A stretch of DNA of 64,000 nucleotides from Candidatus Heimdallarchaeum aukensis (GCA_021513695.1 CP084166.1:576001-640000), one strand, 5' to 3'. Shown: positions 1,467 to 32,628, numbered from the stretch's first letter. Notes: a model not told the origin generated them from the letters alone. Translations and numbers: made by a program.

Positions 1467-1727
1467 CAATTATGAGTGATTCGAATGTTAAGGTTATTAC
1501 CCAGATGTTAAATTCTAGTTAAGCTAGTTATTCAGCTAGTGCAGCTGCTTTAGGAAGCATTAAATCTTTGTTTATTGTTCTTCTTTTAGTTTTCTACTTT
1601 GGCTTAAAGTTTAAATATTCTATATGAATGAAAAAAATCAATTTTACTCTTGTAGGACTTGCAATCATTTTATCTGGATGCGATTAAGAATTTTTTAATA
1701 ATACATATGAATGTATATGTGATTAAG

Positions 1728-1937
1728 ATGGCTAAGAATATAGCAATCTCTGATGAACTCTACAAATTGCTGAAACGTTTAAAACGCCCTGGTGAAAGTT
1801 TTACTGATGTGATTTTAAGATCAATAAAACATTCTACCTCTATAATGGATATTACAGGTAAAAAAACAATACCCCTAGAAGAATGGGAAAAACTCAAGAA
1901 ATTATTTGAAATGAAAGAAATAGAGTTACAAGCGTAA
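1728..1937 (+). CDS. Small ribbon-helix-helix / VapB-type putative antitoxin with no cognate toxin nearby
   Basis: ATG at 1728 inside the 1659..1937 ORF gives MAKNIAISDELYKLLKRLKRPGESFTDVILRSI. This is the typical N-terminus of archaeal RHH antitoxin-like proteins. No PIN/VapC ORF follows. Confidence 0.55.
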   Translation: MAKNIAISDELYKLLKRLKRPGESFTDVILRSIKHSTSIMDITGKKTIPLEEWEKLKKLFEMKEIELQA

Positions 1938-2166
1938 AAGAGATTTGCTTGAGCAGACGATAAAAGATTTCAATTGGTTTATTATTAGCAATAATAACAA
2001 ATCCAATCGGAAATGAATCTGAAATTCCATTGGGAAAAAATTTTTCTTTAATAGAGACACCTATTTTTATTTTTGTTTTTGGACTTTTTTCAATTCTAAT
2101 TTATTTTCAGTAAAACAAAAATTATGTGGAACTGTTGCAAAATTAACATTGACATCAAAAGAATTA

Positions 2167-3501
2167 TTATTTTAGTAATAACTGTAAAGCTGAAATTTGT
2201 TTCTGTTTAGGGTCTATAGTCTTATTTTTAAAGAAAATCCCACTATTTAACATCTCTTCATAGATAATTACTCCCAATATGTGTTTATTTATTGTTTCTG
2301 TTTTTTCGAAACATTTGTCTACTATTGGTTTAATCTCTTTGTAAAGTTCATACTTTCTAATTTCATCAGAACTATAATTGTGAAAATAGTAATCAATAAA
2401 TTGTATTATAATTACTGCATTTTTTTGGTTTAACATTTGATTCTTTTCTAATTTTTCCATTAATCTTCGTTTCAATTGACCTAATTTTGCCTTTATTCGT
2501 TTAGTCTCAACAGTTGATGGAAATTTTATTTGATTTGAAATTTGAATACATTTCTTACTTTTAATTTCGAAGACAAAACAAGATTTAATTGGAGATTCAA
2601 GAAGTTTTGTAACAGAAATTTCTTTTAAGAATTTTTTACCTTTTTCTGATTTTTTTAGTTTATATAATGTGTTTAATAAACTCACTTTATCTGACGAAAA
2701 GTAATTTTCGCCAAAGATTCTTTCCATACTATTTAGATATTGATATAAGGATAAATTTTTAGAACCCATAAAATCTTCTTCAAATAATTCCCAAGAATTT
2801 TCCAAAATTAATAGAAGAAGTTTGTCTATTTCTTCTAATACTAGCTTAGTTATGTACTCTTTATCAAACTTATTTTTATAAATTATTTTTTCTAAATCAA
2901 CTTCTAAGCTGACAGAATAATTGAGAGGGATTTTTTGAATGGCTTTTCTACATATTTCATCAAAACTCTCTTCTAATATTTTATCAACCTTATTCTCATA
3001 AAGTGAAGTGACTTCTAAATTAAATTCAATATTTTGAATGAAAATTCGAAAATCATGATTGAAATCTGAAATATCTCCATAAATAATCTTTGATACATGT
3101 TTATTTTTTAATAATTGGATATAAAGTTGGAACTCAATATATTTACTAAAGTTATTATTTCTAGTAAAACTCCTCATTTTTGATATTATTTTCTTCTGAA
3201 TTCTGCTACTTCTTTCAAACAGATTTATTTCTTTTGTAAGAAGATTTTCTATTTCGTCTAGAATATATTTATACTTTGAAGAATTACGAGTATTTTTATT
3301 TGATAAGGTCTTATTTTCAGTATAAGCTAAATTAGCTATGTTAAAAAAAATATTATGATTATAATGTTTTATAGGTACATCAACATCAGAAAAAACTCTA
3401 TCCAAACTTGGATATTTTATTATCACATCTTTTGCCTTTGTAATAAATTCATTTCGATATAACTTATCATTTTTTTTACCGCAATATGAAGAAACAACCA
3501 T
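2167..3501 (-). CDS. Hypothetical protein (444 aa), no domain recognised
   Basis: Long uninterrupted ORF, co-directional with and downstream of hsdR. K/N/I/E-rich. No catalytic motif could be assigned. Confidence 0.5.
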   Translation of the reverse strand: MVVSSYCGKKNDKLYRNEFITKAKDVIIKYPSLDRVFSDVDVPIKHYNHNIFFNIANLAYTENKTLSNKNTRNSSKYKYILDEIENLLTKEINLFERSSRIQKKIISKMRSFTRNNNFSKYIEFQLYIQLLKNKHVSKIIYGDISDFNHDFRIFIQNIEFNLEVTSLYENKVDKILEESFDEICRKAIQKIPLNYSVSLEVDLEKIIYKNKFDKEYITKLVLEEIDKLLLLILENSWELFEEDFMGSKNLSLYQYLNSMERIFGENYFSSDKVSLLNTLYKLKKSEKGKKFLKEISVTKLLESPIKSCFVFEIKSKKCIQISNQIKFPSTVETKRIKAKLGQLKRRLMEKLEKNQMLNQKNAVIIIQFIDYYFHNYSSDEIRKYELYKEIKPIVDKCFEKTETINKHILGVIIYEEMLNSGIFFKNKTIDPKQKQISALQLLLK

Positions 3502-3645
3502 ATAACCACTTTATACATCTATTTTCTTGATAACTACTGTTTAAAACTTTACTAAAAATGTTTCAAAAGTTTCATGTAGTTATTAAATACTGAAATTTTA
3601 TTTTTTTGAATTTATTAGAAAAAATGAATATGTAAGAGAAATTAT

Positions 3646-4056
3646 TTATTTTCTATTGTATTTTTCTGTTAGCATTCTTTTTAACCACAAATTTAGGAAT
3701 GAATTTAGTGAATCTCTACTTTCAGTATCTACCATGCTTTTTGATGGATAAACAACACTAAACAAATACTGATCTTTATAAGATAAAACTTCTGCAATTT
3801 TTTTTAATGAATCTATACGAATTACTACCTCTGGGTCAGGAACCAAATCATCATTTTGTAAAAAATAGTGACCCATTGATAGTATCATCTCGCTTTCATC
3901 ACGAGATAAAATACTAATATGTAACTCCATCAAATTTCCAGAATACAAAATTAGTTTTTCTTCAATTTCTTCAACATTTGGAATTAATTTCATCAAGAGG
4001 TCATAGTTTTTATGAAAGATAGTTTCAATTGTTGTAATTATCTGTTTATCTGACAC
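3646..4056 (-). CDS. Small protein resembling the DUF1249 (YqiB-like) family
   Basis: 136 aa. From memory it parallels YqiB: NYDLLMKLIP, a central VVIRID...IAEV segment and C-terminal LNSFLNLWLKRML. Lies 60 nt downstream of hsdR on the same strand. Confidence 0.4.
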   Translation of the reverse strand: MSDKQIITTIETIFHKNYDLLMKLIPNVEEIEEKLILYSGNLMELHISILSRDESEMILSMGHYFLQNDDLVPDPEVVIRIDSLKKIAEVLSYKDQYLFSVVYPSKSMVDTESRDSLNSFLNLWLKRMLTEKYNRK

Positions 4057-4116
4057 AATAATAATAATTAAGATTAGTTTAAAAATACCAAAAATAAATT
4101 ATGAACGCATGAGATA

Positions 4117-7100
4117 TTACACCGCTGTTGCCCACTCTTCACCAAACAACTGTGCTTGCTCCATTATTAATTTAATCGCATTAGGAGTTTGATCTGGTGG
4201 ATATTTATACTTTCGCAATAGTTTACGAATCTCAATACGCATGCGAGCTTGAACACTTTTTCTTACTGTGAAATCAATTGTAGCAGAATTTCGAACCTTA
4301 GCAACTAACTCTTTTGCTATTTTCTTTAATGTTTCATCACCCATTTCTCTTACAGCACTTTCATTTGTAGCTAAAGCATCATAAAAAGCAACTTCATCAT
4401 CATTTAATCCAAGTTCTTCTCCCTTTTTGAAAGCTTTTTGCATATCTTTCGCTAATTGAATCAATTCCTCTAAAATTGCAGCAGAAGCTATTGTACGATT
4501 GATATATTTGTTAATAGATTTCTGAAGTAATTCCTCAAAAGAACGAGATTGAACTAAATTCTTTTTAGCTCTAGAACGAATTTGATCCTTCAACAATTTA
4601 TTTAAAACCTCAACAGCTAAATTCTTTTGTTTTAATCCTCTAACTTCTTCAAGAAATTTATCAGAAAGAATAGAAATTTCTGGTTTATCCAATCCTGCTG
4701 CAGAAAAAATGTCTATAACATCTTCTGAAATAACAGCTCTAGAGATTAATTGTCTAATTGCATAATCAACTCTTTCTTTACGTTCTTTGGAAGGAGTAGT
4801 AGCTTTTACAAAACCAGCACGTACAGCTTGGAAAAAAGCTAAATCATCTCGAATAGCTAAAGCTTCTTCATGAGGAATAGCAAGAGAAAAGGCTTTATTT
4901 AGTGCTGAAAGGTTATCTAAAAACCTTTTTTTAGCACTTTCTGGAGTTTCATTAGGTAAATTAAGAATATGTTCCATAGCAGCAGGAAGTAATTGTAATC
5001 TTTGTAAAGCACTTCCTGTTTTAAACAAAGAATAATCAAAATTGTAAAACATATCTGAAACAATTTCATAATATGTTTTCATTAATTCTACAGCTTTTTC
5101 TTGAGGAATAGCTGTTTGTTCTCTTGACTCTACATTAGAATACCTAGATAATGCTTGCTTAAGAAAATAACCTATACCAATATAATCGACAATAAGACCT
5201 CCAGGTTTATCTTTATATACTCTATTTACTCTAGCTATCGCTTGCATTAAATTGTGTCCTTGCATTGGCTTATCTACATACATTGTATGCATACTAGGCA
5301 CATTAAAACCTGTTAACCACATATCTCTTACAATAACAAGTTTAAGTTCGTCCTCAGGATCTTTCATTCGATTTTCAATAATTTTTCTTTTTCTTTTAGG
5401 CCTAATGTGTGAACGCAATAATTGATCATCAGCAGCAGAACCGCTAATTACAACTTTAATGAAACCTTTTTGATCATCATTAGAATGCCACTCAGGCCTT
5501 AGTTTTATTATTTCATTATACAATAAAGCACAAATCCTGCGAGACATACAAACAATCATACCCTTTCCATCTATAATCTCAAGTCTTTTTTCAAAATGAT
5601 TTACAATATCCTCAGCTACTTCACGTAACCTATCGGGATCAGAAACAAGCCTTTCGACTCTTGACCACTTAGATTTCAATTTTTCTCGAGCATATTCTTC
5701 TTCATCTTCTGTGATTTCATCAAATTCTTCATCGATTTGACCCTTCAATTCTTCATTAAACTTAATTTTAACTAACCTTGATTCATAATAAATAGGAACA
5801 GTAGTTTTATCTCTTATTGCTTGTGAAATATCATAAATGCTAATATAATTACCAAAAACATGAATCGTATTTCTGTCGACAAGTTCTACAGGAGTAGCAG
5901 TAAAAGCAATAAAAGAAGCATTAGGCAGAGCTTGACGAATATAAGCAGCAAAACCTTCTTTTAATGAACCTTTTTCAGAAAGTTTTTTTCCAAAAGAATA
6001 ATGACTTCTATGAGCCTCATCAGCAATAACAATGATATTCCTCCTCTCAGATAAAAGAGGATATTGTGCATTCTCTTCAGGAAGAAATTTTTGTATTGTA
6101 GTGAAAATTACACCACCACCGGTTGTTTTAAGCAAATCCTCAATATTATCTTTTGTCGCTTCATGATTTTTTGGATTGTACCTCCTTGCTGTGGCTTGAA
6201 TAGAAGTTTGACGAAGAAGATCCCTTGATAAAGTAAAAGTTGTAAAAAGTTGGTCATCTAAATCGTTTCTATCAGTAATAACAACGACAGTAGGATTGTT
6301 AAGTAGCTGGATTAACTTTGCGGTATAAAATAACATTGTAAGACTCTTACCAGAACCTTGAGTATGCCAAACAACACCAATCTTTTGATCACCATCACTT
6401 CCAGTAGCTCGTAAAGTTTCCTTAATAGCACGATTAACAGCATGATATTGATGATAAGCAGCAGATTTCTTGACTATTGTTCTACCATCGTCTTCAAAAG
6501 TAATAAAAAATCTGATGTAATCTAAAAAACGAGAAGGTTCTAAAATACCACGAAATAAAACTTCAAGAGATAAGATTGATTGGTCAGCTAATATCTCTCC
6601 CTCAATAGTGCGCCAGGGAGTAAAACGCTCCCAATTAGCAGATAAACTGCCAGCTTTAGATTCATAACCATCACTAATAACAATTAACTCATTAGTCCTA
6701 AATAAAGAAGGAATTTCTTTTTTATAAGTCTGAATTTGATTATAAGCATCTCTTGTAGTCGTTTCTTCTTTAGATGGGTTCTTAAGCTCAATAACTACTA
6801 AAGGAATACCATTAACAAAGAGAACAATATCAGGTCGGTGATTGTGTTTGTCAGAACCAACACCTTCTATAACAGTAAATTGATTTACAGCTAAAAAATC
6901 ATTATTCTCAGGATTCTCAAAATCAATAACTCGTACTATATCTCCCTTTACACGACCATCATGGTAATAAGAGACTTCTACACCATCAACTAACATTCTA
7001 TGAAAAGAACGATTGTTTGTTAATAAATCAGGAGAATCAATACGGTTGAGTTTCTGCAAAACATCTTCAAGCACTTCTTTAGGTTTATCAGGATTAAGTT

Positions 7101-7272
7101 TATGTAAAGCTGATTTTAGTCTATCTTTAAGAATAATCTCACTATATGATAACCTTTCAGGATTATTTCCTGTTGGTGCAATATCTGGACCAAACTTGGT
7201 ATCATAACCTAATTCTCTTAAAATTTCCATAGATGCTTCTTCTAACTCTTTTTCAGTTATTTTCATAATCAA
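4117..7272 (-). CDS. hsdR: Type I restriction enzyme, R (endonuclease/translocase) subunit
   Basis: 1051 aa. N-terminal PD-(D/E)xK nuclease motif (PDIVLFVNGIPLVVIELKN). Helicase motif I (TQGSGKSLT) and motif II (IADEAHRSH). Long helical C-terminal region typical of HsdR. Confidence 0.95.
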   Translation of the reverse strand: MIMKITEKELEEASMEILRELGYDTKFGPDIAPTGNNPERLSYSEIILKDRLKSALHKLNPDKPKEVLEDVLQKLNRIDSPDLLTNNRSFHRMLVDGVEVSYYHDGRVKGDIVRVIDFENPENNDFLAVNQFTVIEGVGSDKHNHRPDIVLFVNGIPLVVIELKNPSKEETTTRDAYNQIQTYKKEIPSLFRTNELIVISDGYESKAGSLSANWERFTPWRTIEGEILADQSILSLEVLFRGILEPSRFLDYIRFFITFEDDGRTIVKKSAAYHQYHAVNRAIKETLRATGSDGDQKIGVVWHTQGSGKSLTMLFYTAKLIQLLNNPTVVVITDRNDLDDQLFTTFTLSRDLLRQTSIQATARRYNPKNHEATKDNIEDLLKTTGGGVIFTTIQKFLPEENAQYPLLSERRNIIVIADEAHRSHYSFGKKLSEKGSLKEGFAAYIRQALPNASFIAFTATPVELVDRNTIHVFGNYISIYDISQAIRDKTTVPIYYESRLVKIKFNEELKGQIDEEFDEITEDEEEYAREKLKSKWSRVERLVSDPDRLREVAEDIVNHFEKRLEIIDGKGMIVCMSRRICALLYNEIIKLRPEWHSNDDQKGFIKVVISGSAADDQLLRSHIRPKRKRKIIENRMKDPEDELKLVIVRDMWLTGFNVPSMHTMYVDKPMQGHNLMQAIARVNRVYKDKPGGLIVDYIGIGYFLKQALSRYSNVESREQTAIPQEKAVELMKTYYEIVSDMFYNFDYSLFKTGSALQRLQLLPAAMEHILNLPNETPESAKKRFLDNLSALNKAFSLAIPHEEALAIRDDLAFFQAVRAGFVKATTPSKERKERVDYAIRQLISRAVISEDVIDIFSAAGLDKPEISILSDKFLEEVRGLKQKNLAVEVLNKLLKDQIRSRAKKNLVQSRSFEELLQKSINKYINRTIASAAILEELIQLAKDMQKAFKKGEELGLNDDEVAFYDALATNESAVREMGDETLKKIAKELVAKVRNSATIDFTVRKSVQARMRIEIRKLLRKYKYPPDQTPNAIKLIMEQAQLFGEEWATAV

Positions 7273-8092
7273 TTTCCGCCAAAAATTTTTCTATATTAGT
7301 AATTCGAAGCCTACCTGAGATAAGTTGAGGAAGTAGAATATCTCTTAATTTAATTAAAATATTAATTTCATCCTTATTTTTTCTAATTTTTTCAAAGATT
7401 GGGTCAATTATTTCTCTAAACTTTAGTAAAGTAGTCTTATCAGGTTTTATAATCGGAATCCTAAAAAGGTTACTTTGATTAATTTTTAATTGTACTGCAC
7501 CAGTTATATAAGGTCTAATGTTTATATTCATGAGATGTAACATAACAAATTCTGTACAAAATTCATTTTTTCCTTGTATTACATGAACATGATTATTCGC
7601 CCAAAATTTTCCATGTACATATTGTAAGATGGGTTTTTCATTGTTATCAATAACTGAACCATCTTCTGCCATTAAGAGAAAAATGCCATCAAAAATGTAA
7701 TCATCAATATAGTCTAAAATACTAGCTGCCCCATAATATGGATAAATACCTTTTCTTACCTTTCTTTCTATTTTTGATAAAGGAATTCTTTTTGAATCAT
7801 ATATACTTATGACTTCTTTGAGCGTCCCAACTTCCCATCCTTTTGGTATTTCTTTATCTACTTCCTCATTATATTCAAATTCGCCATCTTTGAAAGGTTC
7901 AAAATCAATAAACCAAGATCTGAAGATAGTTTGGGCTATCTCTTCTAAAACTTTGTTCATCTTCTGATTGAGTTCAATTTTTTGATCTATAGAGCTTAAT
8001 AATTTACTAATAAATTTTTGTATTCTTAAATTAGGTATAGGAAGTGGGATATTTTCAATAATTGAGGTATTTAAGGAAGGTCTAGTAGTACC
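7253..8092 (-). pseudogene. hsdS: 5'-truncated type I R-M specificity subunit (central conserved region + TRD2 + C-terminal conserved region only)
   Basis: The listed ORF 7253..7960 begins in the central conserved region (FRSWFIDFEPF). I translated upstream and the frame stays open to 8092 (GTTRPSLNTSIIENIPLPIPNLRIQKFISKLLSSIDQKIELNQK). It stops exactly at the IS left inverted repeat. Overlaps the hsdR start by 20 nt. Confidence 0.8.
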
Positions 8093-8855
8093 GGTAGTGT
8101 CTAGTTTTCTTCCGACAAAAATATTTGTGGGGACTCTAATAGTAAGATATGAACATTCAAAAACTATCTACTCTTTTTAAGAGATGCAGAGTCCCCAAAA
8201 AAATAATAATAAAAGCTATTTATGAATATATTGGTTCAAAGAATGGGTTGAGGACAGTAGCATGGAAGAATGGTTTAACGCATCAAACATTATGGTATTG
8301 GGTAAAGAAGTTCAGGCTCTTTAGGGAAAGTTTACATAGAGTTGTAGCAGAGAGAGGGGGAATACCAGAGATTATAGTAGTAGATGAAACAGAGATTAGG
8401 ACCTCTCAAGGCTCAATATATCTGTGGTTCGCGTTAGATCCTTACAACAAGACTTTACTGGGTTTTAGTATTACTAAAGGACGGAGTAATCTTGAATGTT
8501 TACTAACTTTCCGTTATTGGCTCAAATGTTGGGGTTTTAAGCCTCGTATTGTCGTTACAGATGCAGGAGTATGGTATCCTGTCTTACTTCGTCTAGGTAT
8601 CAAAATCTCCGTTATCAAAGGTGGTTTACGCTCCTATATTGAACGTTTTAATGCTACTCTTAAGAGTTATCGTTGGTTTCATTCTATTCTCCACTGCACT
8701 TGTCCTATCCGTGCCGTCTATGGCTCTACTCATCTTTCTGGTTTTCTTACTCTCTTTATGCTCTATTATAATTTCGTTCGTCCTCATCAGAGCTTAGGAC
8801 ATCCTCCCCTTAGTTCCTTTTTACCTAGGAGGTGGTATAAAAACTAGACACTACC
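8093..8855 (+). mobile_element. IS6-family-like insertion sequence (763 bp)
   Basis: Perfect 16-bp terminal inverted repeats, GGTAGTGTCTAGTTTT at 8093-8108 and its reverse complement at 8840-8855. Single transposase ORF. Size, GG-starting IRs and DDE layout fit IS6. Flanks (GTAGTACC / AGTCAAAA) show no target-site duplication. Confidence 0.8.
8149..8847 (+). CDS. DDE transposase (IS6-like) with N-terminal HTH
   Basis: 232 aa. Candidate DDE triad in VVDETEI, VVTDAGVWY and YIERFNATLK. The stop codon lies inside the right IR. Confidence 0.8.
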   Translation: MNIQKLSTLFKRCRVPKKIIIKAIYEYIGSKNGLRTVAWKNGLTHQTLWYWVKKFRLFRESLHRVVAERGGIPEIIVVDETEIRTSQGSIYLWFALDPYNKTLLGFSITKGRSNLECLLTFRYWLKCWGFKPRIVVTDAGVWYPVLLRLGIKISVIKGGLRSYIERFNATLKSYRWFHSILHCTCPIRAVYGSTHLSGFLTLFMLYYNFVRPHQSLGHPPLSSFLPRRWYKN

Positions 8856-9122: not shown

Positions 9123-9524
9123 ATGCGTGGTGGAGGAAGAGGAAGAGGAGGAGGATTTGGATTAGGAGCAGGAGGAGCATGTATTTGTCCAGTGTGTGGT
9201 ACAAAAGCTGCTCATGCAAGAGGGGTACCTTGTTTTCAATCTCGATGCCCACAATGTGGAGCACCAATGACTAGAGCAGAAGCTTATGCCGGCCCCCAAC
9301 CACAGAATAGTAAAAACGTACAAGAAGAGAAAGAATACAAATTTGATACAGCAGCAAAACCGCATATAGACCAATCTAGATGTAAGGGGTGTGCTTTATG
9401 CATTAATAGTTGTCCTTTTAATGTTATTAGAATGGAAAATGGTCATGCAATTATTGATTCTTCACGCTGCAGAAGTTGCGGAGTATGTATTTCTTCTTGT
9501 CCTGAAGGGGCGATAGTTTATTAG
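9123..9524 (+). CDS. 2x[4Fe-4S] ferredoxin-domain protein with Gly/Arg-rich N-terminus and a 4-Cys zinc-ribbon-like segment
   Basis: MRGGGRGRGGGFGLGAGG, then CICPVCG..x..CPQCG, then CKGCALCINSCP and CRSCGVCISSCP. Locally purine/GC-rich start in an AT-rich genome. Confidence 0.7.
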   Translation: MRGGGRGRGGGFGLGAGGACICPVCGTKAAHARGVPCFQSRCPQCGAPMTRAEAYAGPQPQNSKNVQEEKEYKFDTAAKPHIDQSRCKGCALCINSCPFNVIRMENGHAIIDSSRCRSCGVCISSCPEGAIVY

Positions 9525-9556
9525 AAAATGTAAAAAAAAATTAAAAAATACTCTTT

Positions 9557-9934
9557 TTATATTTTTAGTGGATCAATAATTATACTTTCTTTATCAAAAG
9601 TTGCCAAGTAAAAGTCTTCTGTTAAAGTGAGACAACCAGTTGGACAAATATCTTGACATAGTGCACAGAAGCAACATTTTCCTAAATCTATTTGTGGATA
9701 AGTTTTTGGGTATTTCTCTTTATATTCTTCTTTTACTTCTACCATCTTTATCGCTTTATTTAAACAAATTTTGGCACAAGATCCACAAGAGATGCAGTTA
9801 TCGATGTCAAACTTATGTTTTGCTCTCTCTCTTTCTGATATCTCTACTTTCTCCATTGGAAAAAGAACAGTCATTGGTCTTTTGAACAAATTCTTGAATA
9901 TTTCTGAAATAATACTTAGTTTCATTGTTATCAC
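9557..9934 (-). CDS. 2x[4Fe-4S] subunit of a complex-I/group-4-hydrogenase-like module (NuoI/MbhN/EchF-like)
   Basis: CISCGSCAKIC and CCFCALCQDICP motifs. Starts 2 nt after the upstream NuoD-like gene ends. Confidence 0.8.
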   Translation of the reverse strand: MITMKLSIISEIFKNLFKRPMTVLFPMEKVEISERERAKHKFDIDNCISCGSCAKICLNKAIKMVEVKEEYKEKYPKTYPQIDLGKCCFCALCQDICPTGCLTLTEDFYLATFDKESIIIDPLKI

Positions 9935-9935
9935 C

Positions 9936-11048
9936 TCATCTATCTACATCAGCAGGACATTGGTTTAAACTCCAATAAATAGCAGGGACGTCAGCATAAT
10001 AAGAATCAGTAAGTAAATGCTTTAAAATAGGTATCATGTGAGTAAAAGAAGGTCCTCTGATCTTAACTCTATAAGGAGTCTTTTTTCCTGTAGCAATCAT
10101 ATAAATAGCTCCTTCTCCTCTTGATAGTTCATTACGTGTATAGGTTTCTCCTTTAGCTTTGCGGAAGTGAACAATAGGTTTCATATTAGACGTTTTTACT
10201 TCCCCTTTTGGCATTCTGTCAATTGCTTGCTTAACTATCTTCTTGCTTTCTTCTATTTCTTGCATAGCTATCAAATATCTTGAATAAGCATCTCCTTCAT
10301 CAAAAACTGGAATTTCAAACTCCAATTCATCATAAATTTCATAAGGATCATCTCTTCTAACATCTGAAGCAACCCCGCTAGCCCTTAAAATAGGTCCTGT
10401 TGCACCTAGTTTAATAGCTTCTTCTTTCGTTAACACTCCTACTTCTTTGAATCTTTCCAACCATACAGGATTTTCTTTTTTTGCGAATTTATGCATATAG
10501 TCAATCTTTTCAAATAAAGTAAGAATCTTTTTTTCTGCTTTCTCTGGTAAATCTTTTCTTACTCCTCCAGGGCAGATATATCCAGCTGGATAAAGTCTTC
10601 CTCCAGTAATATAATCGAACACATCTAGCATATAGTCTCTGTATCCCATTGCAACATTAAATCCAGTAGTAAATCCTGTTCCCATTGACATTACAGCGTA
10701 CCATATAAAGTGCGATTGTATTCTTGACAGTTCTGCAAGTATAACTCTGATGTATTTAGCTCTTTCTGGGATATCATAACCCATTAAAGTATCAACAGCT
10801 TCTGCATGGAGAAGATTCCACTGAAGAGGTTCTAAAACACATATTCTATCTGATAATACAGAGTTTTGCATTGGTTCTCTATATTCCATTAACTTCTCAA
10901 AACCCCTATGTAAATATCCTGGATCAACTACAGCTTTCATCACTCTTTCTCCACGAAGCTGAACTCTCACTGAAAAGTTTCCTGAACCAGGGTGAGCTGG
11001 TCCAAAGTACATTTCAAAATCTCCTTGTCTTTCTTCTATTTCAGTCAT
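9936..11048 (-). CDS. NuoD / [NiFe]-hydrogenase large-subunit-like protein with degenerate metal site
   Basis: 370 aa. GPAHPGSG, GYLHRGFEKL. RICVLE where hydrogenases have RxCGxC. C-terminus NQCPADVDR where hydrogenases have DPCxxCxxR. Confidence 0.85.
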   Translation of the reverse strand: MTEIEERQGDFEMYFGPAHPGSGNFSVRVQLRGERVMKAVVDPGYLHRGFEKLMEYREPMQNSVLSDRICVLEPLQWNLLHAEAVDTLMGYDIPERAKYIRVILAELSRIQSHFIWYAVMSMGTGFTTGFNVAMGYRDYMLDVFDYITGGRLYPAGYICPGGVRKDLPEKAEKKILTLFEKIDYMHKFAKKENPVWLERFKEVGVLTKEEAIKLGATGPILRASGVASDVRRDDPYEIYDELEFEIPVFDEGDAYSRYLIAMQEIEESKKIVKQAIDRMPKGEVKTSNMKPIVHFRKAKGETYTRNELSRGEGAIYMIATGKKTPYRVKIRGPSFTHMIPILKHLLTDSYYADVPAIYWSLNQCPADVDR

Positions 11049-11593
11049 TTTTTCACCTCAAAATAAATATCTTCTCGGGGATTACTTTCATCATAATATT
11101 CTTGTTGTACATATTTTCGCCAGTCGAAGTCCTTTCTAAACGGAGGAGGGCCAGTCCAGTCTTCCAACATTAGTGGAGTAAGATTAACGTTTCCTTCAAA
11201 AATCACGCCATAAAACTCATGGCATTCTCTTTCACATAATTCTGCATTTTTACTCCATAGAGAAGTAACAGAAGATATTGTAGGATTTTCTCTATTTATC
11301 CTTGTTTTTATCGTTAAAAGCATTTTTTCTTTATAGGACCATAAATGGTAAGCAATTTCAAAATTATTCTTTTCAATCCAATCTGTAACACTTATTGTAG
11401 AAAGATGTTCAAAACCCATATCATAAGCAATCGAACAAGCATCTACTATTTCTTTAGGTTCAATAGATACCCAAAGTCTTTTTTTTCTTTGGATATTAAC
11501 CTTCTTGTTTAATTTCTTACTTAAAGCCGTTACAATTTTTTCTTCTTTATCCAAATTATTCTTCTCTTTCTCTACTACACTCATTTTACTCAC
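11045..11593 (-). CDS. NuoC / MbhK / EchD-like 30-kDa subunit
   Basis: ERECHEFYGVIFEGN motif. 4-nt overlaps with both neighbours indicate translational coupling. Confidence 0.8.
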   Translation of the reverse strand: MSKMSVVEKEKNNLDKEEKIVTALSKKLNKKVNIQRKKRLWVSIEPKEIVDACSIAYDMGFEHLSTISVTDWIEKNNFEIAYHLWSYKEKMLLTIKTRINRENPTISSVTSLWSKNAELCERECHEFYGVIFEGNVNLTPLMLEDWTGPPPFRKDFDWRKYVQQEYYDESNPREDIYFEVKK

Positions 11594-12030
11594 TCATCCG
11601 GCATTCCATGAACATGTTGAACTATTTTGAAAACAGCATCAAAAACAGCTTCAGGTCTGGGAGGACAACCAGGAATATACATGGTTACAGGAAGATAATC
11701 TTCAAGCTTCTTAACAGTGTTATATGAATCCCAATACATCCCACCTGTTATTGGACATGAACCCAATGCTAAGACAAACTTTGGATCAGGCATTTGCTCA
11801 TAAATCTTTTGTGCTCTCTTCATTGATTTTGGTGTCTGAAAACCAGCAATAAACAACACATCAGCCTTTCTTGGTGAATTAACTGTTATCATTCCAAAAC
11901 GTTCCATATCCCATCTTGAACCTACAACTGGAACAAGTTCAGTAAATCCACAAGAGTTAAACCAATTAAAAACCCAAATAGCTTTTACAAAATATTTCAT
12001 CACAGTTTTCTTCTTAACCATCCTTTCCAC
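11590..12030 (-). CDS. NuoB / hydrogenase small-subunit-like protein
   Basis: GSCPITGG and PGCPPRPE motifs. The first cluster motif reads NSCGFTE, so only one Cys where CxxC or CC is expected. Confidence 0.85.
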   Translation of the reverse strand: MERMVKKKTVMKYFVKAIWVFNWFNSCGFTELVPVVGSRWDMERFGMITVNSPRKADVLFIAGFQTPKSMKRAQKIYEQMPDPKFVLALGSCPITGGMYWDSYNTVKKLEDYLPVTMYIPGCPPRPEAVFDAVFKIVQHVHGMPDE

Positions 12031-12398
12031 TTTCTTCTCTTTTGTTTAGAAACACTATACACGAATTCTTGCTATAATTATTTAAAAAAAAATTTACTTA
12101 CATATATCTTTTAGGGTAAGAATTTAATCGTGTTGCTATACTTACAAGCCCAAAAATGATAAAATAGGTCAAGGACTTTTCGGATAACCGAACATTAATC
12201 AGTATAAATACTTGCCTAATCATGTGAATAATTATGCACATGGTCAAAATGGTGATAACTGCGAATTAATCAATGAAATAGGTGTTTAAGAAAAAGCACT
12301 TCTACTTTGAAAAAGAAAAATAAATGAAAATAGTAAATCCAAAAAGTTACAGTAAATAGATAAAAATATAATAAAAAAGAAAATAAAAGACATCTAAG

Positions 12399-14156
12399 TT
12401 ATGATTTATAACTCCCATATAGATAAAGAAATCGTTCTAAATAGTACAAGAAAACTTGATTGAAATAACCGGGAAAATAAATATCAGCTGCGTGACCTGC
12501 ATATGGAAAAGTTAGTAAAGCACAATCTGTTTTTCCAGTGCCTAAATAAGCATTTTTTATTATCTCTGACTCTTCAATCAATCTATCTTTTTCTCCTTGA
12601 AATATCAAACAAGGAGGAGAGCTCTCATTGATCAATATACTTGGATTGACCCATTCGTCCTTACTTTTTGTTGCAAACTCATATTTAACATTGTTTGCAG
12701 GATAATAAGGAATTATTCCTTTTATCCTTAATTTATTTGAAAAAATTTCAGTATAATTTCCAGAATCTATGCTTAGCGCAGTAGCTAAAGCGAGTTGCCC
12801 TCCTGCAGAACTTCCAGAAATAAATACTTTATCTAAATTTGCTCCGTATTCTTCCGCATGCTCTTCCAAGTAAAAAGTGAAATTACCTATTTGTCGAATC
12901 ATATCGTCAATAGTAAATTGTCCATAAACATTTTCTGGTCCGATTTTTAGCTTTCCAAAAACTGGTGTCTCATTATTTAGTCCGTATTGGATGTCAAAAA
13001 CACAGTATCCTTGTGCTGCAAGATATCTATTCATCATTTGTACATTAAGCTGTCCCTTATCTCCAAGAACCCACCCTCCTCCGTGAATTCTTATAATTGT
13101 TGAATTTTTTCCAGGTAAGGTTTCACTTGTTTGTTTCGGTAAGTAAGCATCAAAATAGAGTTTAATATCTTTATCAACTGAATAATTACTTTTGCTACCA
13201 TTAAAGTAAAGCACATCTGTTATAACTTGAACATCAAATTTTCCAATGCCAAAAAAGTATCCTGTTAGTTGAAAAGGATCATCGAGAAAATAATCTGTAA
13301 AACTAGAATTTTCTATAACTTTTTTCCAATCACCATCAAAATAAGGATTAAAAGCGTTTGAGAATTCTAATTCTGCTTGTTTTATTGTATAAGGAGTATA
13401 AGCTACTGGAACAAAAGAGAGAGAAGTAAAGGTTAACCCAAAAACTGCTATTAAGGCAATTTTTGCCTTAAAATATTTAGATCTCTTATTTGAAATGTTG
13501 ATGAGTGTAGATGAAGAGTTTAAAACTATTAAACCAATAAAAATCCCTGCAGGAGCAACAAAAACGCTTAACAAAAAGAAGAAAGTGTTTTGCATTCTTG
13601 GAGCAAAAAATATTATCGATGTAACTATCCCTAAACTCAACCCCAATAACGCCAAAATTAAAAGAATGACTTTAGCTATTTTACAAACTATTGTACCCTT
13701 TTCTTTTTCTTTTTCTTTTTCTTTTTCTGTGTTTTCTAGTTGATCTTTTATTCTTCTTTTTTTCACTAACCAGTAAAGACTTATAAAAGCAGGAAAAGAA
13801 AATAAAAACAATAAACTAAGAACAATCGCAACAGAAAAGATCACATTTATAGATTTGACAGGTGTGAAACCTGTAAAATTAACAAAAAATAGTACAATAA
13901 AGGAAAGAAAAGAGAAAACAAAGTAAAGGTATGATAGAATTCTAATATCACTTTTTTGTTTCGGCGATTCTAATTGTTTTGAGTTCAGGAAAGACAAAAA
14001 GAAGTAATTAAACATAATTGTAAATATAATGAATAATCCATTAATATTCCAAATTAAAGAATTTGAGGGATTTGCTAAATAAATTGAGCCTGTGATAATA
14101 TTTAGAACATTGATTATAATTGAAAATATGGTTATGTACAAAGGAAACTGTTTCAT
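12399..14156 (-). CDS. Membrane-anchored alpha/beta-hydrolase (HSL-type esterase/lipase)
   Basis: N-terminal half is polytopic TM. C-terminal half has the HGGGW oxyanion motif and GSSAGG nucleophile elbow. (EK)6 linker. Confidence 0.75.
   Translation of the reverse strand: MKQFPLYITIFSIIINVLNIITGSIYLANPSNSLIWNINGLFIIFTIMFNYFFLSFLNSKQLESPKQKSDIRILSYLYFVFSFLSFIVLFFVNFTGFTPVKSINVIFSVAIVLSLLFLFSFPAFISLYWLVKKRRIKDQLENTEKEKEKEKEKGTIVCKIAKVILLILALLGLSLGIVTSIIFFAPRMQNTFFFLLSVFVAPAGIFIGLIVLNSSSTLINISNKRSKYFKAKIALIAVFGLTFTSLSFVPVAYTPYTIKQAELEFSNAFNPYFDGDWKKVIENSSFTDYFLDDPFQLTGYFFGIGKFDVQVITDVLYFNGSKSNYSVDKDIKLYFDAYLPKQTSETLPGKNSTIIRIHGGGWVLGDKGQLNVQMMNRYLAAQGYCVFDIQYGLNNETPVFGKLKIGPENVYGQFTIDDMIRQIGNFTFYLEEHAEEYGANLDKVFISGSSAGGQLALATALSIDSGNYTEIFSNKLRIKGIIPYYPANNVKYEFATKSKDEWVNPSILINESSPPCLIFQGEKDRLIEESEIIKNAYLGTGKTDCALLTFPYAGHAADIYFPGYFNQVFLYYLERFLYLYGSYKS
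13698..13727. repeat. Hexanucleotide microsatellite (TTTTTC)n encoding (EK)n on the minus strand
   Basis: Read directly: c ttttc tttttc tttttc tttttc tttttc. Lies in-frame inside the esterase linker. Confidence 0.6.
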
Positions 14157-17575: not shown

Positions 17576-18151
17576 TTAAGCTATGATAAGCTCGATAAAA
17601 TCGTTTGCAAATTTTTCTACTTTTTTCCAATCTCTGAAGTCAACAATATTGTTTTTCATATCTGGTTCATGTTCTTTGGCCACTACAGAAGCAATTTTCT
17701 TATCTAGCCAGCCCATTCTACTATTATCTGACAGATCAAGTTTTCCTCCAAATGCTTCAATTAGTTGAAATTCTAAACCTAGTTTTTCAATTCGTTCAAT
17801 TATGTATTGTTTTTTAATTTCATCATATCTTTCTTGCTGTGCAGCAAAAGCTGAACTAATGAAAAATGCCTTTTTTCCGCTATATTGTTTTAGTTTTTCT
17901 TTCTCCTTATTCAGATAATTTTTTACTTCTTTTACCCACATTGACATCTTAATTCCTGTACCTATAACAACACCATCGTAATTATTAATTTTAGGAAGAT
18001 TTTTGTTTTTGACTTTTTTTAAATCAAAAATGTCTGTTTTAATTTCTTTTTTCTCAAACATCTCCTTTAATTTCTCAGCTACTTCTTCTGTTGCTCCAAA
18101 TCTTGTTCCATATAGGATTAAAACTTTCTTATCAGTAATTTTATTCACCAA
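17576..18151 (-). CDS. Flavodoxin-domain protein
   Basis: KVLILYGTRFGATEEVAEKL N-terminus and an alpha/beta pattern of about 190 aa. Confidence 0.7.
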   Translation of the reverse strand: MVNKITDKKVLILYGTRFGATEEVAEKLKEMFEKKEIKTDIFDLKKVKNKNLPKINNYDGVVIGTGIKMSMWVKEVKNYLNKEKEKLKQYSGKKAFFISSAFAAQQERYDEIKKQYIIERIEKLGLEFQLIEAFGGKLDLSDNSRMGWLDKKIASVVAKEHEPDMKNNIVDFRDWKKVEKFANDFIELIIA

Positions 18152-27634: not shown

Positions 27635-28102
27635 ATGAAAAATTACTCAAAATTAATTAAATTTTCTACAGTAATAGCACTACTAGGATTCTTAGTTTCA
27701 CTTTTTCTTTTGTATTCTGAACTAACAAATTCATTTTATTGCGTAATTGAAAAACAATTTTTTGACTGTGCAGAAGTAAATAGAAGCTCTTATGCTACTA
27801 TTCTTGGAATACCAATAAGTCTTATGGGAGCTGTTTACTACTTATTTATTATTATAACTGCAATAATGATAACTAAACAGGTAAAAGAAAAGCTCTTACT
27901 TGATATTTTACTTCCTGTAACTACAACTGCTGGGTTAATTTTCTCTGTCTATTTGACTTTAATAGAAGCATTGGTAATAAAAAAATTCTGTGAATATTGT
28001 TTAACATCAGCAATTTGTAGCCTTATCTTGGCTTTAATTTACTTAATAAGACCTATTGCTAAACTAAAAAAATTCACAGCTAGAAAGGTAAATACAAGCT
28101 AA
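27635..28102 (+). CDS. VKOR (vitamin K epoxide reductase) family membrane oxidoreductase
   Basis: Loop cysteines C..x8..C followed by SSYATILGIPISLMG, and CEYC in the last TM. Confidence 0.75.
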   Translation: MKNYSKLIKFSTVIALLGFLVSLFLLYSELTNSFYCVIEKQFFDCAEVNRSSYATILGIPISLMGAVYYLFIIITAIMITKQVKEKLLLDILLPVTTTAGLIFSVYLTLIEALVIKKFCEYCLTSAICSLILALIYLIRPIAKLKKFTARKVNTS

Positions 28103-28313: not shown

Positions 28314-30413
28314 TTATAGTAAAGGAATTAATCCTGCTCCACCGTTAATGAGCATTAGTAATCCCATAAAGATGGATGAGGTTAGACTCATTACTACTAG
28401 TAAAGTGTTTATTGATGGTCCTGCTGTATCTTTGAATGGATCTCCTACAGTATCTCCAGTTATTGCTGCTTTATGAGTTTGTGTTCCTTTTCCTCCTAGG
28501 TTTCCATCTTCTATCCATTTCTTTGCGTTATCCCAAGCTCCTCCTGCATTACTCATGAATATAGCAAACACGAAACCAGAGAGTATTGACCCTGCTAGAA
28601 ATGCACCTAAGGAAGCTACTCCGAAGAATATTCCTACAAGTAGTGGTAACATAATTGATATTATACTTGGTAGTATTAACTGTTTTAATGATCCTTTTGT
28701 AGCAATTGCGATTGTTTTTGAGAAATCTGCAGGTTCTTCTCCTGTTAGAATCTTTGGATTTTCTTTGAACTGTCTTCTTATCTCATCAACCATCTTTGCT
28801 GCGTTCTTCTGTACTCCTAAAATCAGTACTGCACTAAATAATGCTGGAGCCATAACTCCAAAGAATGCGCCTATTAACACATTTACTGATAGCAAGTTTA
28901 TTCCACTTTCTACTATTCCAGCTTCTTGAGCATATGAGAACATTAGTGCTACTACAGCTAGATTTGCAGCTCCTATTGCAAAACCTTTAGTAATTGCTTT
29001 GGCTGTGTTTCCTGCAGAGTCTAATCTATCAGCAATGCGAATAGTTTCTTCTCCTAAACCACCTTGTTCAGCGATAGCTCTTGAATTGTCTACAATTGGG
29101 CCATAGGCATCATTTGAAACAATGGTTCCTACAATAGCCAACATTCCTACTGCAGCCATTGCTACTCCAAATTGTGCATCAAGTAAGTAAGCTAAGAACA
29201 TAGCGATAATTATACCTACTCCTGGAGGCACAACGCTTATAAGTCCATAGGAAAATCCAGAAAGGATTACTAGTGCATCTCCCTCTTCAGCTGCTTTAGC
29301 AATGTTTCTTGTTGGAGGAAGATCATCTCTAGTAAAGTAGTCACTTGTCCAACCAATGACAATTCCGCTAGCAAGACCTAGTATAACAGCAAGATAGTTT
29401 CTCCACAGGCGACTAATATCTTCTTGAGTTAAGGAATTGTTCAAAGTCATAAGCCAGACAATAAATGCACCTAAAGCTGCAAATATCAAAGTAGCTAAAT
29501 AAGTTCCAAGGTTTAGAGAACGTCCAGGGTTATCAGAACTTATTATTTTGATAATGAAAATACCAATTAATGAAGCGATGAGTCCAATTCCTGAAAGCAC
29601 GAGAGGATAGACAATAAAAGTTTCTTTAGCAGCAGACAGAATAAGAGAATTAGCTAAAATCATAGCGGCAACAATGGAAGCTACATAAGAGTCAAATAGA
29701 TCAGAACCCATTCCAGCTAGATCTCCGACGTTATCTCCTACATTATCTGCAATTGTAGCAGGATTTCTTACATCGTCTTCAGGTAAGTCGAATTCACTCT
29801 TACCAACTAAATCTGCACCTACATCAGCTGTTTTAGTATATATTCCTCCACCACATTTCATGAACAGTGCAATTGTACTAGCTCCAAAACTGAACCCTAG
29901 TACCACATATGGTGATTGGAATATCCAGTACAATCCTGAAACACCTATTAGTGCAGCACCTACTACTGCTAAACCCATTACAGCTCCTCCGAAGAAAGCA
30001 ATGTCAAAACCTTTCTTTGTTCCTACAGTACAACCTTGTGCAGCTCTTGTATTTGCTTTTACTCCAACCATCATTCCTAACCAACCAGCAATCATACTTG
30101 CTGCTGAACCTATGAGATAAGATATAGCTTGCTCCCAGTTTAGATCTCCAGCAACAACAGGAACTTTATATTCTGTCATTTCAGAAGGTAAGAATAGTAG
30201 AATTACTAAGAATAGTATGAATACAAAGATGCTAAGCACTGTGTATTGAACCTTCAAGTAAGTTTCTGCCCCTTTTTCTATATAACCTGAAACTTCTTGC
30301 ATTTTTTCATTTCCAGGGTCTTCTTTCATGACTAAGAATGCGAAGAAAACCGCCATTCCTATCGAAATTACCCCTGCTATTAGCGATACAAGTAAAATTA
30401 ACGGTACAGCCAT
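28314..30413 (-). CDS. hppA: Membrane-integral proton-translocating pyrophosphatase
   Basis: 699 aa. DNVGDNVGDLAGMGSDLF, GNTAKAITKGFAIG and DTVGDPFKDTAGPSIN motifs. Confidence 0.95.
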   Translation of the reverse strand: MAVPLILLVSLIAGVISIGMAVFFAFLVMKEDPGNEKMQEVSGYIEKGAETYLKVQYTVLSIFVFILFLVILLFLPSEMTEYKVPVVAGDLNWEQAISYLIGSAASMIAGWLGMMVGVKANTRAAQGCTVGTKKGFDIAFFGGAVMGLAVVGAALIGVSGLYWIFQSPYVVLGFSFGASTIALFMKCGGGIYTKTADVGADLVGKSEFDLPEDDVRNPATIADNVGDNVGDLAGMGSDLFDSYVASIVAAMILANSLILSAAKETFIVYPLVLSGIGLIASLIGIFIIKIISSDNPGRSLNLGTYLATLIFAALGAFIVWLMTLNNSLTQEDISRLWRNYLAVILGLASGIVIGWTSDYFTRDDLPPTRNIAKAAEEGDALVILSGFSYGLISVVPPGVGIIIAMFLAYLLDAQFGVAMAAVGMLAIVGTIVSNDAYGPIVDNSRAIAEQGGLGEETIRIADRLDSAGNTAKAITKGFAIGAANLAVVALMFSYAQEAGIVESGINLLSVNVLIGAFFGVMAPALFSAVLILGVQKNAAKMVDEIRRQFKENPKILTGEEPADFSKTIAIATKGSLKQLILPSIISIMLPLLVGIFFGVASLGAFLAGSILSGFVFAIFMSNAGGAWDNAKKWIEDGNLGGKGTQTHKAAITGDTVGDPFKDTAGPSINTLLVVMSLTSSIFMGLLMLINGGAGLIPLL

Positions 30414-31834: not shown

Positions 31835-31983
31835 TCTATCTCTTCCACTACTTTTGATGTTAATTTTTGAATATTATTTTTAAACTTTTTTTTGAACGAA
31901 GTTTCCTAGATAAAAAAATTTAAACATGCAAAGAAGAGAATATATTAGAAACAATTGATTAACTACGATATTGGTTGAACTCC

Positions 31984-32547
31984 ATGACAGAAAAACAGTT
32001 TATTTTCAAAATTGTACTTATTGGTGATGGCGCAGTAGGAAAAACTTCTATTAGAATGCAATATATGGGATACGGATTCAATACCAGTCATCTTATGACC
32101 CTGGGAGCAGATTTTTCATCTATTGATAAAGAAATTATTCCTAACGAAAAATGGAAATTTCAAATTTGGGATTTAGCAGGACAACAAATGTTTGAACAAG
32201 TTCGAGCTCGTTTTTACAAAGGAGCTCAGGGTGCCTTACTTGTCTTTGATATCACTCGCCCTTCCTCTTTTCAAAACCTTCCCATGTGGTTAAACGAATT
32301 GTATAAATTCAACGGATCAGGAGTTGTCCCTGTTGTAGTCCTTGCTAATAAGAGTGATTTGAGAGATAGAAAAAGTGTTAAATTCAAACATGTAGAAAAA
32401 TATGTTTCTGAATTAAATCTGCGTACCCAACGCTATGGTGTAACTAATTATTGTTTAGAAACAAGTGCCAAGACTGGATTAAACATCGATAGAGCTTTTG
32501 AAATTCTCGGGAGAAGCATTCGAGATAAATCAAGCAAAAAAACATAA
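31984..32547 (+). CDS. Ras/Rab-like small GTPase with canonical G1-G5 motifs
   Basis: GDGAVGKTS (G1), TLGADF (G2), WDLAGQQ (G3), NKSD (G4), SAK (G5). No C-terminal Cys lipidation motif. The track ORF starts at TTG 31975; I prefer ATG 31984. Confidence 0.9.
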   Translation: MTEKQFIFKIVLIGDGAVGKTSIRMQYMGYGFNTSHLMTLGADFSSIDKEIIPNEKWKFQIWDLAGQQMFEQVRARFYKGAQGALLVFDITRPSSFQNLPMWLNELYKFNGSGVVPVVVLANKSDLRDRKSVKFKHVEKYVSELNLRTQRYGVTNYCLETSAKTGLNIDRAFEILGRSIRDKSSKKT

Positions 32548-32628
32548 TACCCAATACATTAATTTTTTATACTTTAAGTGATTCTTTTAAGTATATACTA
32601 ATAAACGAAAGATTCTGAGGAAAAACCA

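Follow-up and report, generated by a model that had tools for sequence, protein, structure and literature searches.

The window analysed here is a stretch of 64,000 nucleotides from Candidatus Heimdallarchaeum aukensis (GCA_021513695.1, CP084166.1:576001-640000) with a GC content of about 30%. On its minus strand, from position 12030 to 9557, we found four tightly packed open reading frames (ORFs) in the order B-C-D-I, whose products resemble subunits NuoB, NuoC, NuoD and NuoI of complex I. A Logan contig of run SRR15988954 matched the window DNA at 100% identity. In comparison with Ca. Heimdallarchaeum endolithica PR6, the DNA was 96% identical over the operon and 85-88% identical in the flanks, and the NuoD proteins shared 99% of their residues. 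Given these DNA identities, the window stems from a close relative of PR6 and not from PR6 itself. Its GC content, the NuoD identity and two tandem genes for Ras-family GTPases jointly assign it to the genus Heimdallarchaeum. The four genes are:

11590..12030, minus strand: B, a nuoB/mbsJ-like gene (146 amino acids counted from a GTG start; Pfam, NCBIfam and PDB matches)
11045..11593, minus strand: C, a nuoC/mbsK-like gene (182 amino acids; Pfam and PDB matches)
9936..11048, minus strand: D, a nuoD/mbsL-like gene (370 amino acids; Pfam and PDB matches, motifs and an AlphaFold2 (AF2) model)
9557..9934, minus strand: I, a nuoI/mbsN-like gene (two [4Fe-4S] motifs; Pfam, NCBIfam and PDB matches)

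All four products fell into families shared with complex I. B matched Pfam PF01058 (Oxidored_q6, 6e-23) and the NCBIfam NuoB subfamily, C matched PF00329 (Complex1_30kDa, 1e-29), D matched PF00346 (Complex1_49kDa, 6e-72) and I matched Fer4_7 together with the NCBIfam NuoI subfamily (1.6e-29). D passed the NCBIfam NuoD model NF004739 (381 bits, cutoff 360), but remained far below the cutoff of the NuoD equivalog TIGR01962 (314 versus 459). The exception models for Fpo were missed as well (FpoD 296 versus 600, FpoC 91 versus 220, FpoI 82 versus 180), which rules out Fpo.

Among solved structures, the best match of B, C and D was in each case MBS, formerly MBX, of Pyrococcus furiosus (PDB 6U8Y). 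B aligned to MbsJ without gaps (6u8y_J, 148 bits), C matched MbsK (6u8y_K, 64 bits, versus at most 45 bits for complex I and NDH subunits), and D scored higher against MbsL (6u8y_L, 295 bits) than against Nqo4 of Thermus thermophilus (234), mitochondrial 49-kDa subunits (about 219), MbhL (150) or HycE (114). The matches of I were about equal, with NdhI (86 bits) slightly ahead of MbsN (80 bits). The gene order is that of mbsJ-K-L-N, whereas the identity of D to MbsL is only about 41%. The AF2 monomer predicted for D (predicted local distance difference test, pLDDT, 72.8; predicted template modelling score, pTM, 0.78; 48-sequence alignment) confirms the fold of this subunit, and its top Foldseek matches were complex I 49-kDa/NuoD chains (template modelling score 0.85-0.88). 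Judged from sequence, the four genes probably encode an MBS-type catalytic head, equivalent to MbsJ-K-L-N, and neither a hydrogenase nor the Q-module of complex I.

The cofactor ligands were compared residue by residue. In D, the two hydrogenase motifs read R68-I-C70-V-L-E73 and N362-Q-C364-P-A-D367-V-D-R370, so that only the first cysteine of each NiFe pair is kept. B contains three cysteines in all (SC27GFT30E, GSC92P and GC122PPRP), and I carries two intact CxxCxxCxxxC motifs (C47/50/53/57 and C87/90/93/97). An earlier sequence-only reading of the window had numbered the cysteines of B and D correctly, and its motif register held upon alignment to RVCGIC, DPCFSCEDR and CNGC of a true hydrogenase (locus L012). 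In the ungapped HMMER alignment, C27, C92 and C122 of B fall on C28, C93 and C123 of MbsJ, and F24 falls on C25 of MbsJ, which is not a ligand and has no equivalent in B. C70 and C364 of D align to RIC85VPE and NC385PPDIDR of 6u8y_L.

Precisely these features have been described for MBS. MbsL keeps two of the four NiFe cysteines (C85 and C385), the proximal cluster of MbsJ has three cysteine ligands (C28, C93 and C123) with one iron left free for catalysis, and both the quinone ligands H38 and Y87 of Nqo4 and the hydrogenase glutamate are absent (PMC7684303, PMC8165549). Since the same two cysteines in D and the same three-cysteine proximal cluster pattern recur in the window, its half-degenerate site corresponds to the known MBX/MBS state. 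By analogy, B would carry a proximal [4Fe-4S] cluster on three cysteines only, and one iron would have an open coordination site because just C27, C92 and C122 hold the cluster. The sequence-only reading had seen an evolutionary intermediate between hydrogenase and NuoD in this site. In that form, the proposal finds no support: the pattern is published for MBX/MBS (PMC7684303, PMC8165549), where the idea of a "missing link" is also established already, and it is invariant in the family described below.

According to automatic names, the genes would encode an ordinary complex I Q-module, that is a quinone reductase, or a cryptic [NiFe]-hydrogenase. The passed NF004739 cutoff, homologues named "NADH-quinone oxidoreductase subunit D" and the complex I chains heading the Foldseek matches speak for this explanation. 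The four subunit folds, the three-cluster wire and the Pfam families are indeed shared with the Q-module of T. thermophilus (Nqo6/5/4/9). However, B reads S-C27-G28 where NdhK has S-C-C, with G28 at the second cysteine of the complex I pair, and thus lacks the tandem Cys-Cys of cluster N2. In D, the position of Nqo4 His38 is a gap and that of Tyr87 is V71, in a column with V or I in the family and Y in Nuo. D furthermore keeps its two hydrogenase cysteines, the order is B-C-D-I instead of B-C-D-H-I, and NuoA/H/J/K/L/M/N are not linked. A hydrogenase fares no better. Ancestry and subunit set are shared with group 4 [NiFe]-hydrogenases, but the window module has neither RxCGxC, DPCxxC and the small-subunit CxxC (SCGFTE stands in B where hydrogenase small subunits read CNGCDIE) nor Hyp/HycI genes, and two of the four NiFe cysteines are missing. 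The catalytic glutamate is absent too: the column equivalent to E21 of MbhL is E in 7/7 hydrogenases versus G (G23) in 23/23 family members. Together with the low TIGR01962 and FpoD scores and the lack of hyp and NuoA/H/J-N genes in the 64 kb window, these differences make this explanation very improbable, and the motifs rule out a true hydrogenase. In this respect, motifs and model scores bear out the sequence-only reading, for which the module was no hydrogenase and no NuoBCDI of the canonical, quinone-reducing kind. Ehr (energy-converting hydrogenase-related) complexes, compared here by their description, are likewise hydrogenase-derived heads that lost their NiFe ligands; reportedly, Marreiros et al. 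2013 described them with membrane subunits.

The module belongs to a tight protein family, here called family X. The closest database proteins, at least 120 in number and 61-88% identical, all carried CPADxDR (with one S for A), and 118 carried DR[LIVT]C[VI][LF]E. Among 1.84 billion representatives clustered at 50% identity, family X amounted to one full-length representative (409 bits), and the next protein scored 289 bits at no more than 43% identity. In JGI metagenomes, 17 loci showed 56-79% identity and the other loci kept showed 35-45%. Identity is thus at least 56% inside family X and at most 45% to the rest. The group at 35-45% comprised mostly classical Mbx/Mbs clusters, in which Mrp genes, two antiporter-like genes and NuoH precede B-C-D-I. 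Their motifs (RICVPE, CPP[DE]I[DE]R and TGCGxIE) differ from those of family X (RxC[VI][LF]E, CPADxDR and NSCGFxE), and this lower-identity group often loses the vestigial cysteines (the first kept in 32/51 sequences, the second in 28/51).

In a neighbour-joining (NJ) tree rooted on hydrogenases, Nuo branched first and family X was sister to the Mbx/Mbs assemblage. This tree is crude and has no bootstrap support values, and the placement of family X as a separate sister clade, instead of a branch inside the Mbx/Mbs clade, is tentative. Nevertheless, it disagrees with the position on the line to NuoD that the sequence-only reading had proposed for the module. Family X occurs in Heimdallarchaeia and in Thermoplasmata-like archaea, and across both groups its members are 56-88% identical in D and about 75-90% in B.

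In addition to the two vestigial cysteines, D of family X contains a third one, C159, in the segment Y-I-C-P-G-G-V-R (codon at window positions 10572-10574). C70, C159 and C364 were all invariant in the D alignment (23/23 members). The C159 column is I/W/V/T/Y in Mbx and R/K in Nuo and is not Cys in hydrogenases either, and a one-residue insertion (G156) is unique to family X. In a pairwise alignment, C159 lies five residues past the position of Nqo4 His169, in the same loop; in complex I, this histidine is a neighbour of cluster N2. Among 21 family members, the invariant cysteines of B were C27, C92 and C122 only. Position 30 varies among T, A and C, even where two sequences are otherwise nearly identical (A in L028, C in L029), and is thus no essential ligand. 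Since the cysteine pattern is invariant across family X, it represents a fixed feature and not ongoing decay.

With the membrane arm missing locally and the NiFe site only vestigial, one might see in the module what is left of a lost membrane complex, decaying and no longer functional. We consider this barely credible. The ratio of non-synonymous to synonymous substitution (dN/dS), determined against an 88%-identical relative, ranged from 0.03 (D) through 0.04 (B) to 0.13 (I). Such strong purifying selection indicates that the four genes are functional and rules out a pseudogene remnant. Besides, all four ORFs were intact in every genome examined, the cluster ligands are invariant and identity in D and B is high.

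Among ORFs of at least 90 amino acids in the 64 kb window, we detected no member of the NuoH/L/M/N, antiporter-like, Mrp or Hyp families. Likewise, NuoA, NuoJ, NuoK and the Hyp/HycI maturation genes were absent from the window, and no NuoA/H/J/K/L/M/N gene was found within about 10 kb on either side in five further Heimdall-clade loci. In classical Mbx loci (L035-L096), by contrast, MbsM, MbsH/H' and Mrp genes are linked to the head. The sequence-only reading had stated that NuoH-like and antiporter-like genes are missing for 25 kb on either side; this holds for the window, but the span does not, because the window extends past the operon by 52 kb in one direction but by just 9.5 kb towards its low-coordinate end. 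The multi-spanning membrane proteins of the window are MMPL, H+-PPase, MFS, P-type ATPase, ABC-2, YhhN and VKOR proteins, as well as two further ones without a Pfam match at E 0.001 or better. The VKOR-family gene (27635-28102) adjoins the gene of the H+-translocating pyrophosphatase (28314-30413), the only obvious ion pump of the window.

The stand-alone layout recurred in relatives. In the Heimdall subclade, with at least 76% identity to the window, B-C-D-I stood alone amid wholly different neighbours in seven distinct genomes (window/PR6, L002, L004, L005, L017 on a short 5.9-kb contig, L100 and L102). Since it is kept with unrelated flanks in seven genomes, this layout is not a local accident, and the claim that the module is encoded without membrane subunits stands.

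Four further features of the window bear on the expression of the operon and on possible electron partners:

12031..12130, minus strand: AT-rich region upstream of B, a putative promoter of the operon's own, with TATA-like boxes, TTTAAATAATTATA at about 12086-12073 (direct reading)
9525..9556, no strand assigned: convergent intergenic spacer of 32 nucleotides with T-runs on both strands, a likely terminator for nuoI and the ferredoxin-like gene (direct reading)
9123..9524, plus strand: ferredoxin-like gene (133 amino acids), convergent with nuoI (tail to tail)
17576..18151, minus strand: Flavodoxin_5 gene (Pfam PF12724, 7e-20), 5.5 kb upstream of the operon

B and C overlap by 4 nucleotides (GTGA), and so do C and D (ATGA), as the sequence-only reading had it for a translationally coupled run of four genes. 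Its 2-nucleotide gap was not confirmed: D and I are spaced by 1 nucleotide if I begins at GTG, and the more likely start of I is an ATG at 9925, 10 nucleotides past the D stop and preceded by GGTGA. For B, too, an ATG (at 12021) is probably the start instead of the GTG. The AT-rich DNA upstream of B spans 368 nucleotides, and none of its ORFs of at least 20 amino acids (12031-12398, all short and AT-rich) was an MbhI-like or NuoA-like small membrane ORF. With TATA-like boxes in front of B and a T-rich spacer at the 3' end, B-C-D-I looks like an autonomous operon.

The ferredoxin-like gene, which had been called divergent, in fact converges on nuoI. Its product combines a Gly/Arg-rich N-terminus, a CxxC...CxxC zinc-ribbon-like segment (weak matches at residues 18-55) and a 2x[4Fe-4S] ferredoxin domain (Pfam Fer4 families at residues 79-131). 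It is a possible electron partner of the module. The gene was similarly placed in L001, L002 and PR6 (L003), but not in L004, L100 and L102. A flavodoxin gene directly adjoins the ferredoxin-like gene in L002; the association of the window's own Flavodoxin_5 gene with the operon is weak.

Some genes around these operons deserve mention. The N-terminus of the ferredoxin-like protein (window 9123-9300), with its Gly/Arg-rich CxxC zinc ribbon, is homologous (E 9e-19) to a 62-amino-acid ORF at L010:1819-2007, which sits, a few kb away from B-C-D-I, in a DUF134/DUF5320/ParA-Fer4/NifX-like (Nitro_FeMo-Co) cluster. In L002 (15084-15837), a DUF134 gene follows a 113-amino-acid Gly/Arg/Tyr-rich ORF without Pfam match, at a distance of about 3.5 kb to the operon. 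Upstream of the operon in the window (12399-14156) lies a gene whose product has 7 predicted membrane helices and an (EK)n repeat, with a BD-FAE/alpha-beta hydrolase domain at its C-terminus; its position beside the operon is not kept in relatives.

We favour, at slightly less than an even chance, the explanation that the module is a ferredoxin-fed MBS-type sulfane-sulfur or disulfide reductase head without a pump of its own. Family membership, cofactor-ligand pattern, operon autonomy, selection and gene contexts are the observations from which it starts, and from these we infer donor, substrate and solubility or location of the module. Electrons from a low-potential donor (a ferredoxin, for which the zinc-ribbon ferredoxin encoded convergently is a candidate, or a flavodoxin) would enter the NuoI-like subunit at its two [4Fe-4S] clusters and then reach the proximal [4Fe-4S] cluster held by the NuoB-like subunit. 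There, the open iron, flanked by the triad C70/C159/C364 of D, would reduce a sulfane-sulfur, polysulfide or disulfide-type substrate, as in Pyrococcus MBS. The Heimdallarchaeum head, lacking a dedicated ion-pumping arm, would act as a non-pumping electron sink or a sulfur-redox enzyme and might be cytoplasmic or loosely membrane-attached. A head without arm is biochemically plausible since the P. furiosus subcomplex MbsJKLN is soluble, staying stable in the supernatant at 100,000 g, and can reduce dimethyl trisulfide (PMC7684303). Relatives with 62-64% identity (L006/L007 and L021/L022) have genes for cytoplasmic sulfur or disulfide enzymes next to the module, which also speaks for this explanation, as do thiol-redox genes near L002 and L010, a NifU gene inside the operon of L032 and the strong purifying selection.

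Several findings weigh against a sulfur reductase without pump. The role of the cysteine triad is speculative because the two vestigial NiFe cysteines are dispensable for catalysis in MBS (PMC7684303). The AF2 model is uninformative on the site since its low-confidence segments (residues 17-23, 44-68, 153-161 and 365-370) carry the active-site loops and the cysteines. No clear sulfur genes were found in the Heimdall-clade neighbourhoods. The beta1-beta2 loop (FGPAHPGSGNF), which is the interface to NuoH in MBS and complex I, is invariant in all members of family X, and no difference in length or motif was found that splits stand-alone from membrane-linked members. Moreover, some relatives are membrane-linked. 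NuoH lies directly upstream in L008/L009 (67% identity, Hodarchaeales-like), with no antiporter gene within 10 kb, and downstream of the family X genes in L025 and L032. L028/L029 (60% identity) follow directly behind a full Mbh-type arm composed of MnhE, MrpF, MnhG, MbhD, MbhE, MnhB, NuoK, one antiporter-like subunit and an MbhI-like protein with two transmembrane helices (2-TM). Membrane subunits also exist in the genus itself, as Wu et al. 2022 (PMC8813620) report a single MBH operon per Heimdallarchaeum genome, including genes for electron transport and for maturation factors.

The same interface loop, linked membrane genes and MBH operon favour a split operon. Here, the module would be the head of a membrane-bound, ion-translocating Mbx/Mbh-like complex whose anchor genes (for a NuoH/MbsM-like protein as well as Mrp and antiporter-like subunits) lie at another place in the genome, or the head would be shared with, or exchanged onto, the MBH arm of the organism. 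The hydrophobic IWxFNWF segment of B is invariant in stand-alone members, too. The NJ tree points to an ancestor that was membrane-bound, because members linked to membrane genes split off close to the base in each of the two subclades. There is also a precedent: the 2M complex I of Chloroflexi has its nuoBCDI genes outside the operon for the membrane arm (PMC7117926). Those, however, are true Nuo proteins with an arm known elsewhere in the genome, whereas the window proteins are MBS-type.

Other evidence speaks against such a split. Around the operon, anchor genes are absent from the 9.5 kb and 52 kb that the window covers and from about 10 kb per side in five other Heimdall-clade genomes. 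The MBH operon reported for the genus is a different operon with its own catalytic genes, and it brings its own electron-transfer genes and maturation factors. Several relatives pair the module with cytoplasmic Hdr-type partners. Suggestive, too, is that proteins named Heimdallarchaeaceae were absent from the best 120 NuoH matches, versus two in the best 12 NuoD matches, with most entries unnamed. A query with D of a true hydrogenase gave none so named in its best 120 matches, most of which were unnamed as well. Complete NuoA-B-C-D-H-I-J-K-L-M-N-like clusters with intact NiFe motifs do occur in related "Heimdallarchaeota" metagenome-assembled genomes (MAGs; L012, L097, L099 and L108). By whole-genome shotgun prefix, none of the assemblies with the complete cluster that were compared (JBQSHG, JACCLD, JAHLVW, JAUVZH and WJIK) coincided with a stand-alone assembly (JBQSHA, JAHLWR, JAUVXV, JBMXSF, JAAFKH and JADCTQ), which weighs neither for nor against a split. 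Overall, we regard a split operon as a serious alternative whose chance is clearly below even.

The membrane-linked loci showed further peculiarities. The arm-linked clusters extend over L028:221-8200 and L029:4622-11110. In L028, the family X head is followed by NuoH and a second head, a true [NiFe]-hydrogenase (CNGC in the small and RVCGIC in the large subunit), so that two different heads share one cluster. In L032, a NifU_N scaffold gene (1020-1412) stands between B and C, with a gene for a 2-TM protein upstream and NuoH downstream. The NuoH adjoining the family X head of L008 is 54% identical to a NuoH from a Promethearchaeota (Asgard) MAG, which belongs to a complex-I-like hydrogenase cluster (L109:4330-16009) with a fused NuoC-NuoD followed by NuoH, I, J and K, only two antiporter-like subunits and HycI close by.

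Other relatives combine the module with genes for soluble enzymes. In L006/L007, B-C-D-I is followed by HdrA(MvhD)-HdrC-HdrB. In the Thermoplasmata-like L021/L022 (62-64% identity in D), it lies inside a set typical of sulfur-oxidising Hdr-like systems (bioRxiv 10.1101/2023.12.18.572138), with HdrC, HdrB, an LplA-like lipoate ligase, a giant HdrA (1538-1651 amino acids), DsrE, TusA, MvhD and a GcvH-like lipoate-binding protein; these sets span L021:1-18500 and L022:1200-13100. In L010/L011, B-C-D-I is located among CoADR-like, thioredoxin, NifU and ParA-Fer4 genes, and thiol-redox genes were found near the operons of L002 and L010. Thus, one and the same type of head is used with a membrane arm, with an anchor only, with cytoplasmic Hdr-type partners or alone.

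From the Hdr-linked loci, one could conclude that the module is the electron-input or output part of a larger soluble oxidoreductase, wiring a partner (Hdr-like in Thermoplasmata) to ferredoxin as MvhAGD feeds HdrABC, without being the terminal reductase itself. The Hdr(MvhD) and sHdr-like sets, directly after or divergent from BCDI in L006, L007, L021 and L022, argue for this, and they share HdrA(MvhD)/HdrB/HdrC, TusA, DsrE, lipoate-binding protein and lipoate ligase with the MvhAGD-HdrABC and sHdr-LbpA systems. In addition, Appler et al. report Hdr domains joined to Asgard group-4 complexes, and according to a preprint of the Imachi lab, Nuo-related subunits in Hodarchaeales HC1 go with other oxidoreductases. 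However, the link is seen in the Thermoplasmata-like relatives and not in the window, and no Hdr or large oxidoreductase gene adjoins the operon in the seven Heimdall-clade loci. The head of family X also differs from MvhAGD in having no NiFe site, and its open-iron cluster and invariant cysteine triad resemble a catalytic site. We regard a pure wiring function as improbable.

We searched the literature for a stand-alone NuoBCDI and for NuoB with sHdr or TusA, and this family was not described there. Compared with that literature, a separate, tight and widespread family with a third invariant cysteine and mostly without membrane arm is new, and so is the occurrence of some of its lineages beside Hdr/sHdr-TusA-DsrE genes. 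More boldly, family X may be an unrecognised class of cytoplasmic iron-sulfur enzymes built from the head of a respiratory complex, a natural "C-MBS". Its three-cysteine cluster and the triad C70/C159/C364 would then perform ferredoxin-driven persulfide, polysulfide or disulfide chemistry, either alone (in Heimdallarchaeia) or plugged into Hdr/sHdr-TusA-DsrE-LbpA systems (in Thermoplasmata-like archaea). We think this extended proposal rather unlikely.

Beyond the operon, the window contains a strain-specific island (1659-8847) that is lacking at this position in PR6. It encodes a type I restriction R subunit (4117-7272) and a short S subunit (7253-7960) that has a single specificity domain, but no M subunit, and an rve-family transposase gene (8149-8847) lies beside the ferredoxin-like gene. 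An insertion sequence may have disrupted the restriction-modification operon of this island. At 31975-33195, two tandem genes for Ras/Arf-type small GTPases (Pfam Ras, 4e-40 and 6e-26) are found, which are typical of Asgard archaea.

Whether the archaeal ancestor of eukaryotes respired is debated between Appler et al. and the Imachi-lab preprint, and Appler et al. took NuoBCDI as the peripheral arm of Heimdallarchaeia complexes. Public records name the genes described here NADH-quinone oxidoreductase B/C/D/I, and as such they would count as "complex I components" in Asgard reconstructions. Since the module is probably not complex I, it should be left out of the evidence for complex I or respiration. 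If the "C-MBS" proposal were true, the "partial complex I" NuoB/C/D/I of many Asgard genomes would be unrelated to respiration. As one tight family is found with an Mbh-type arm, with NuoH only, with Hdr or with nothing, the head is evidently swapped freely between membrane and soluble partners. A pump-less MBS-type head with an extra invariant cysteine by an open-iron cluster would be soluble and tractable enough for studies of sulfur or disulfide reduction at a cluster. That it is found beside sHdr, TusA and DsrE genes points to an electron route of archaeal sulfur metabolism that is still unexplored.

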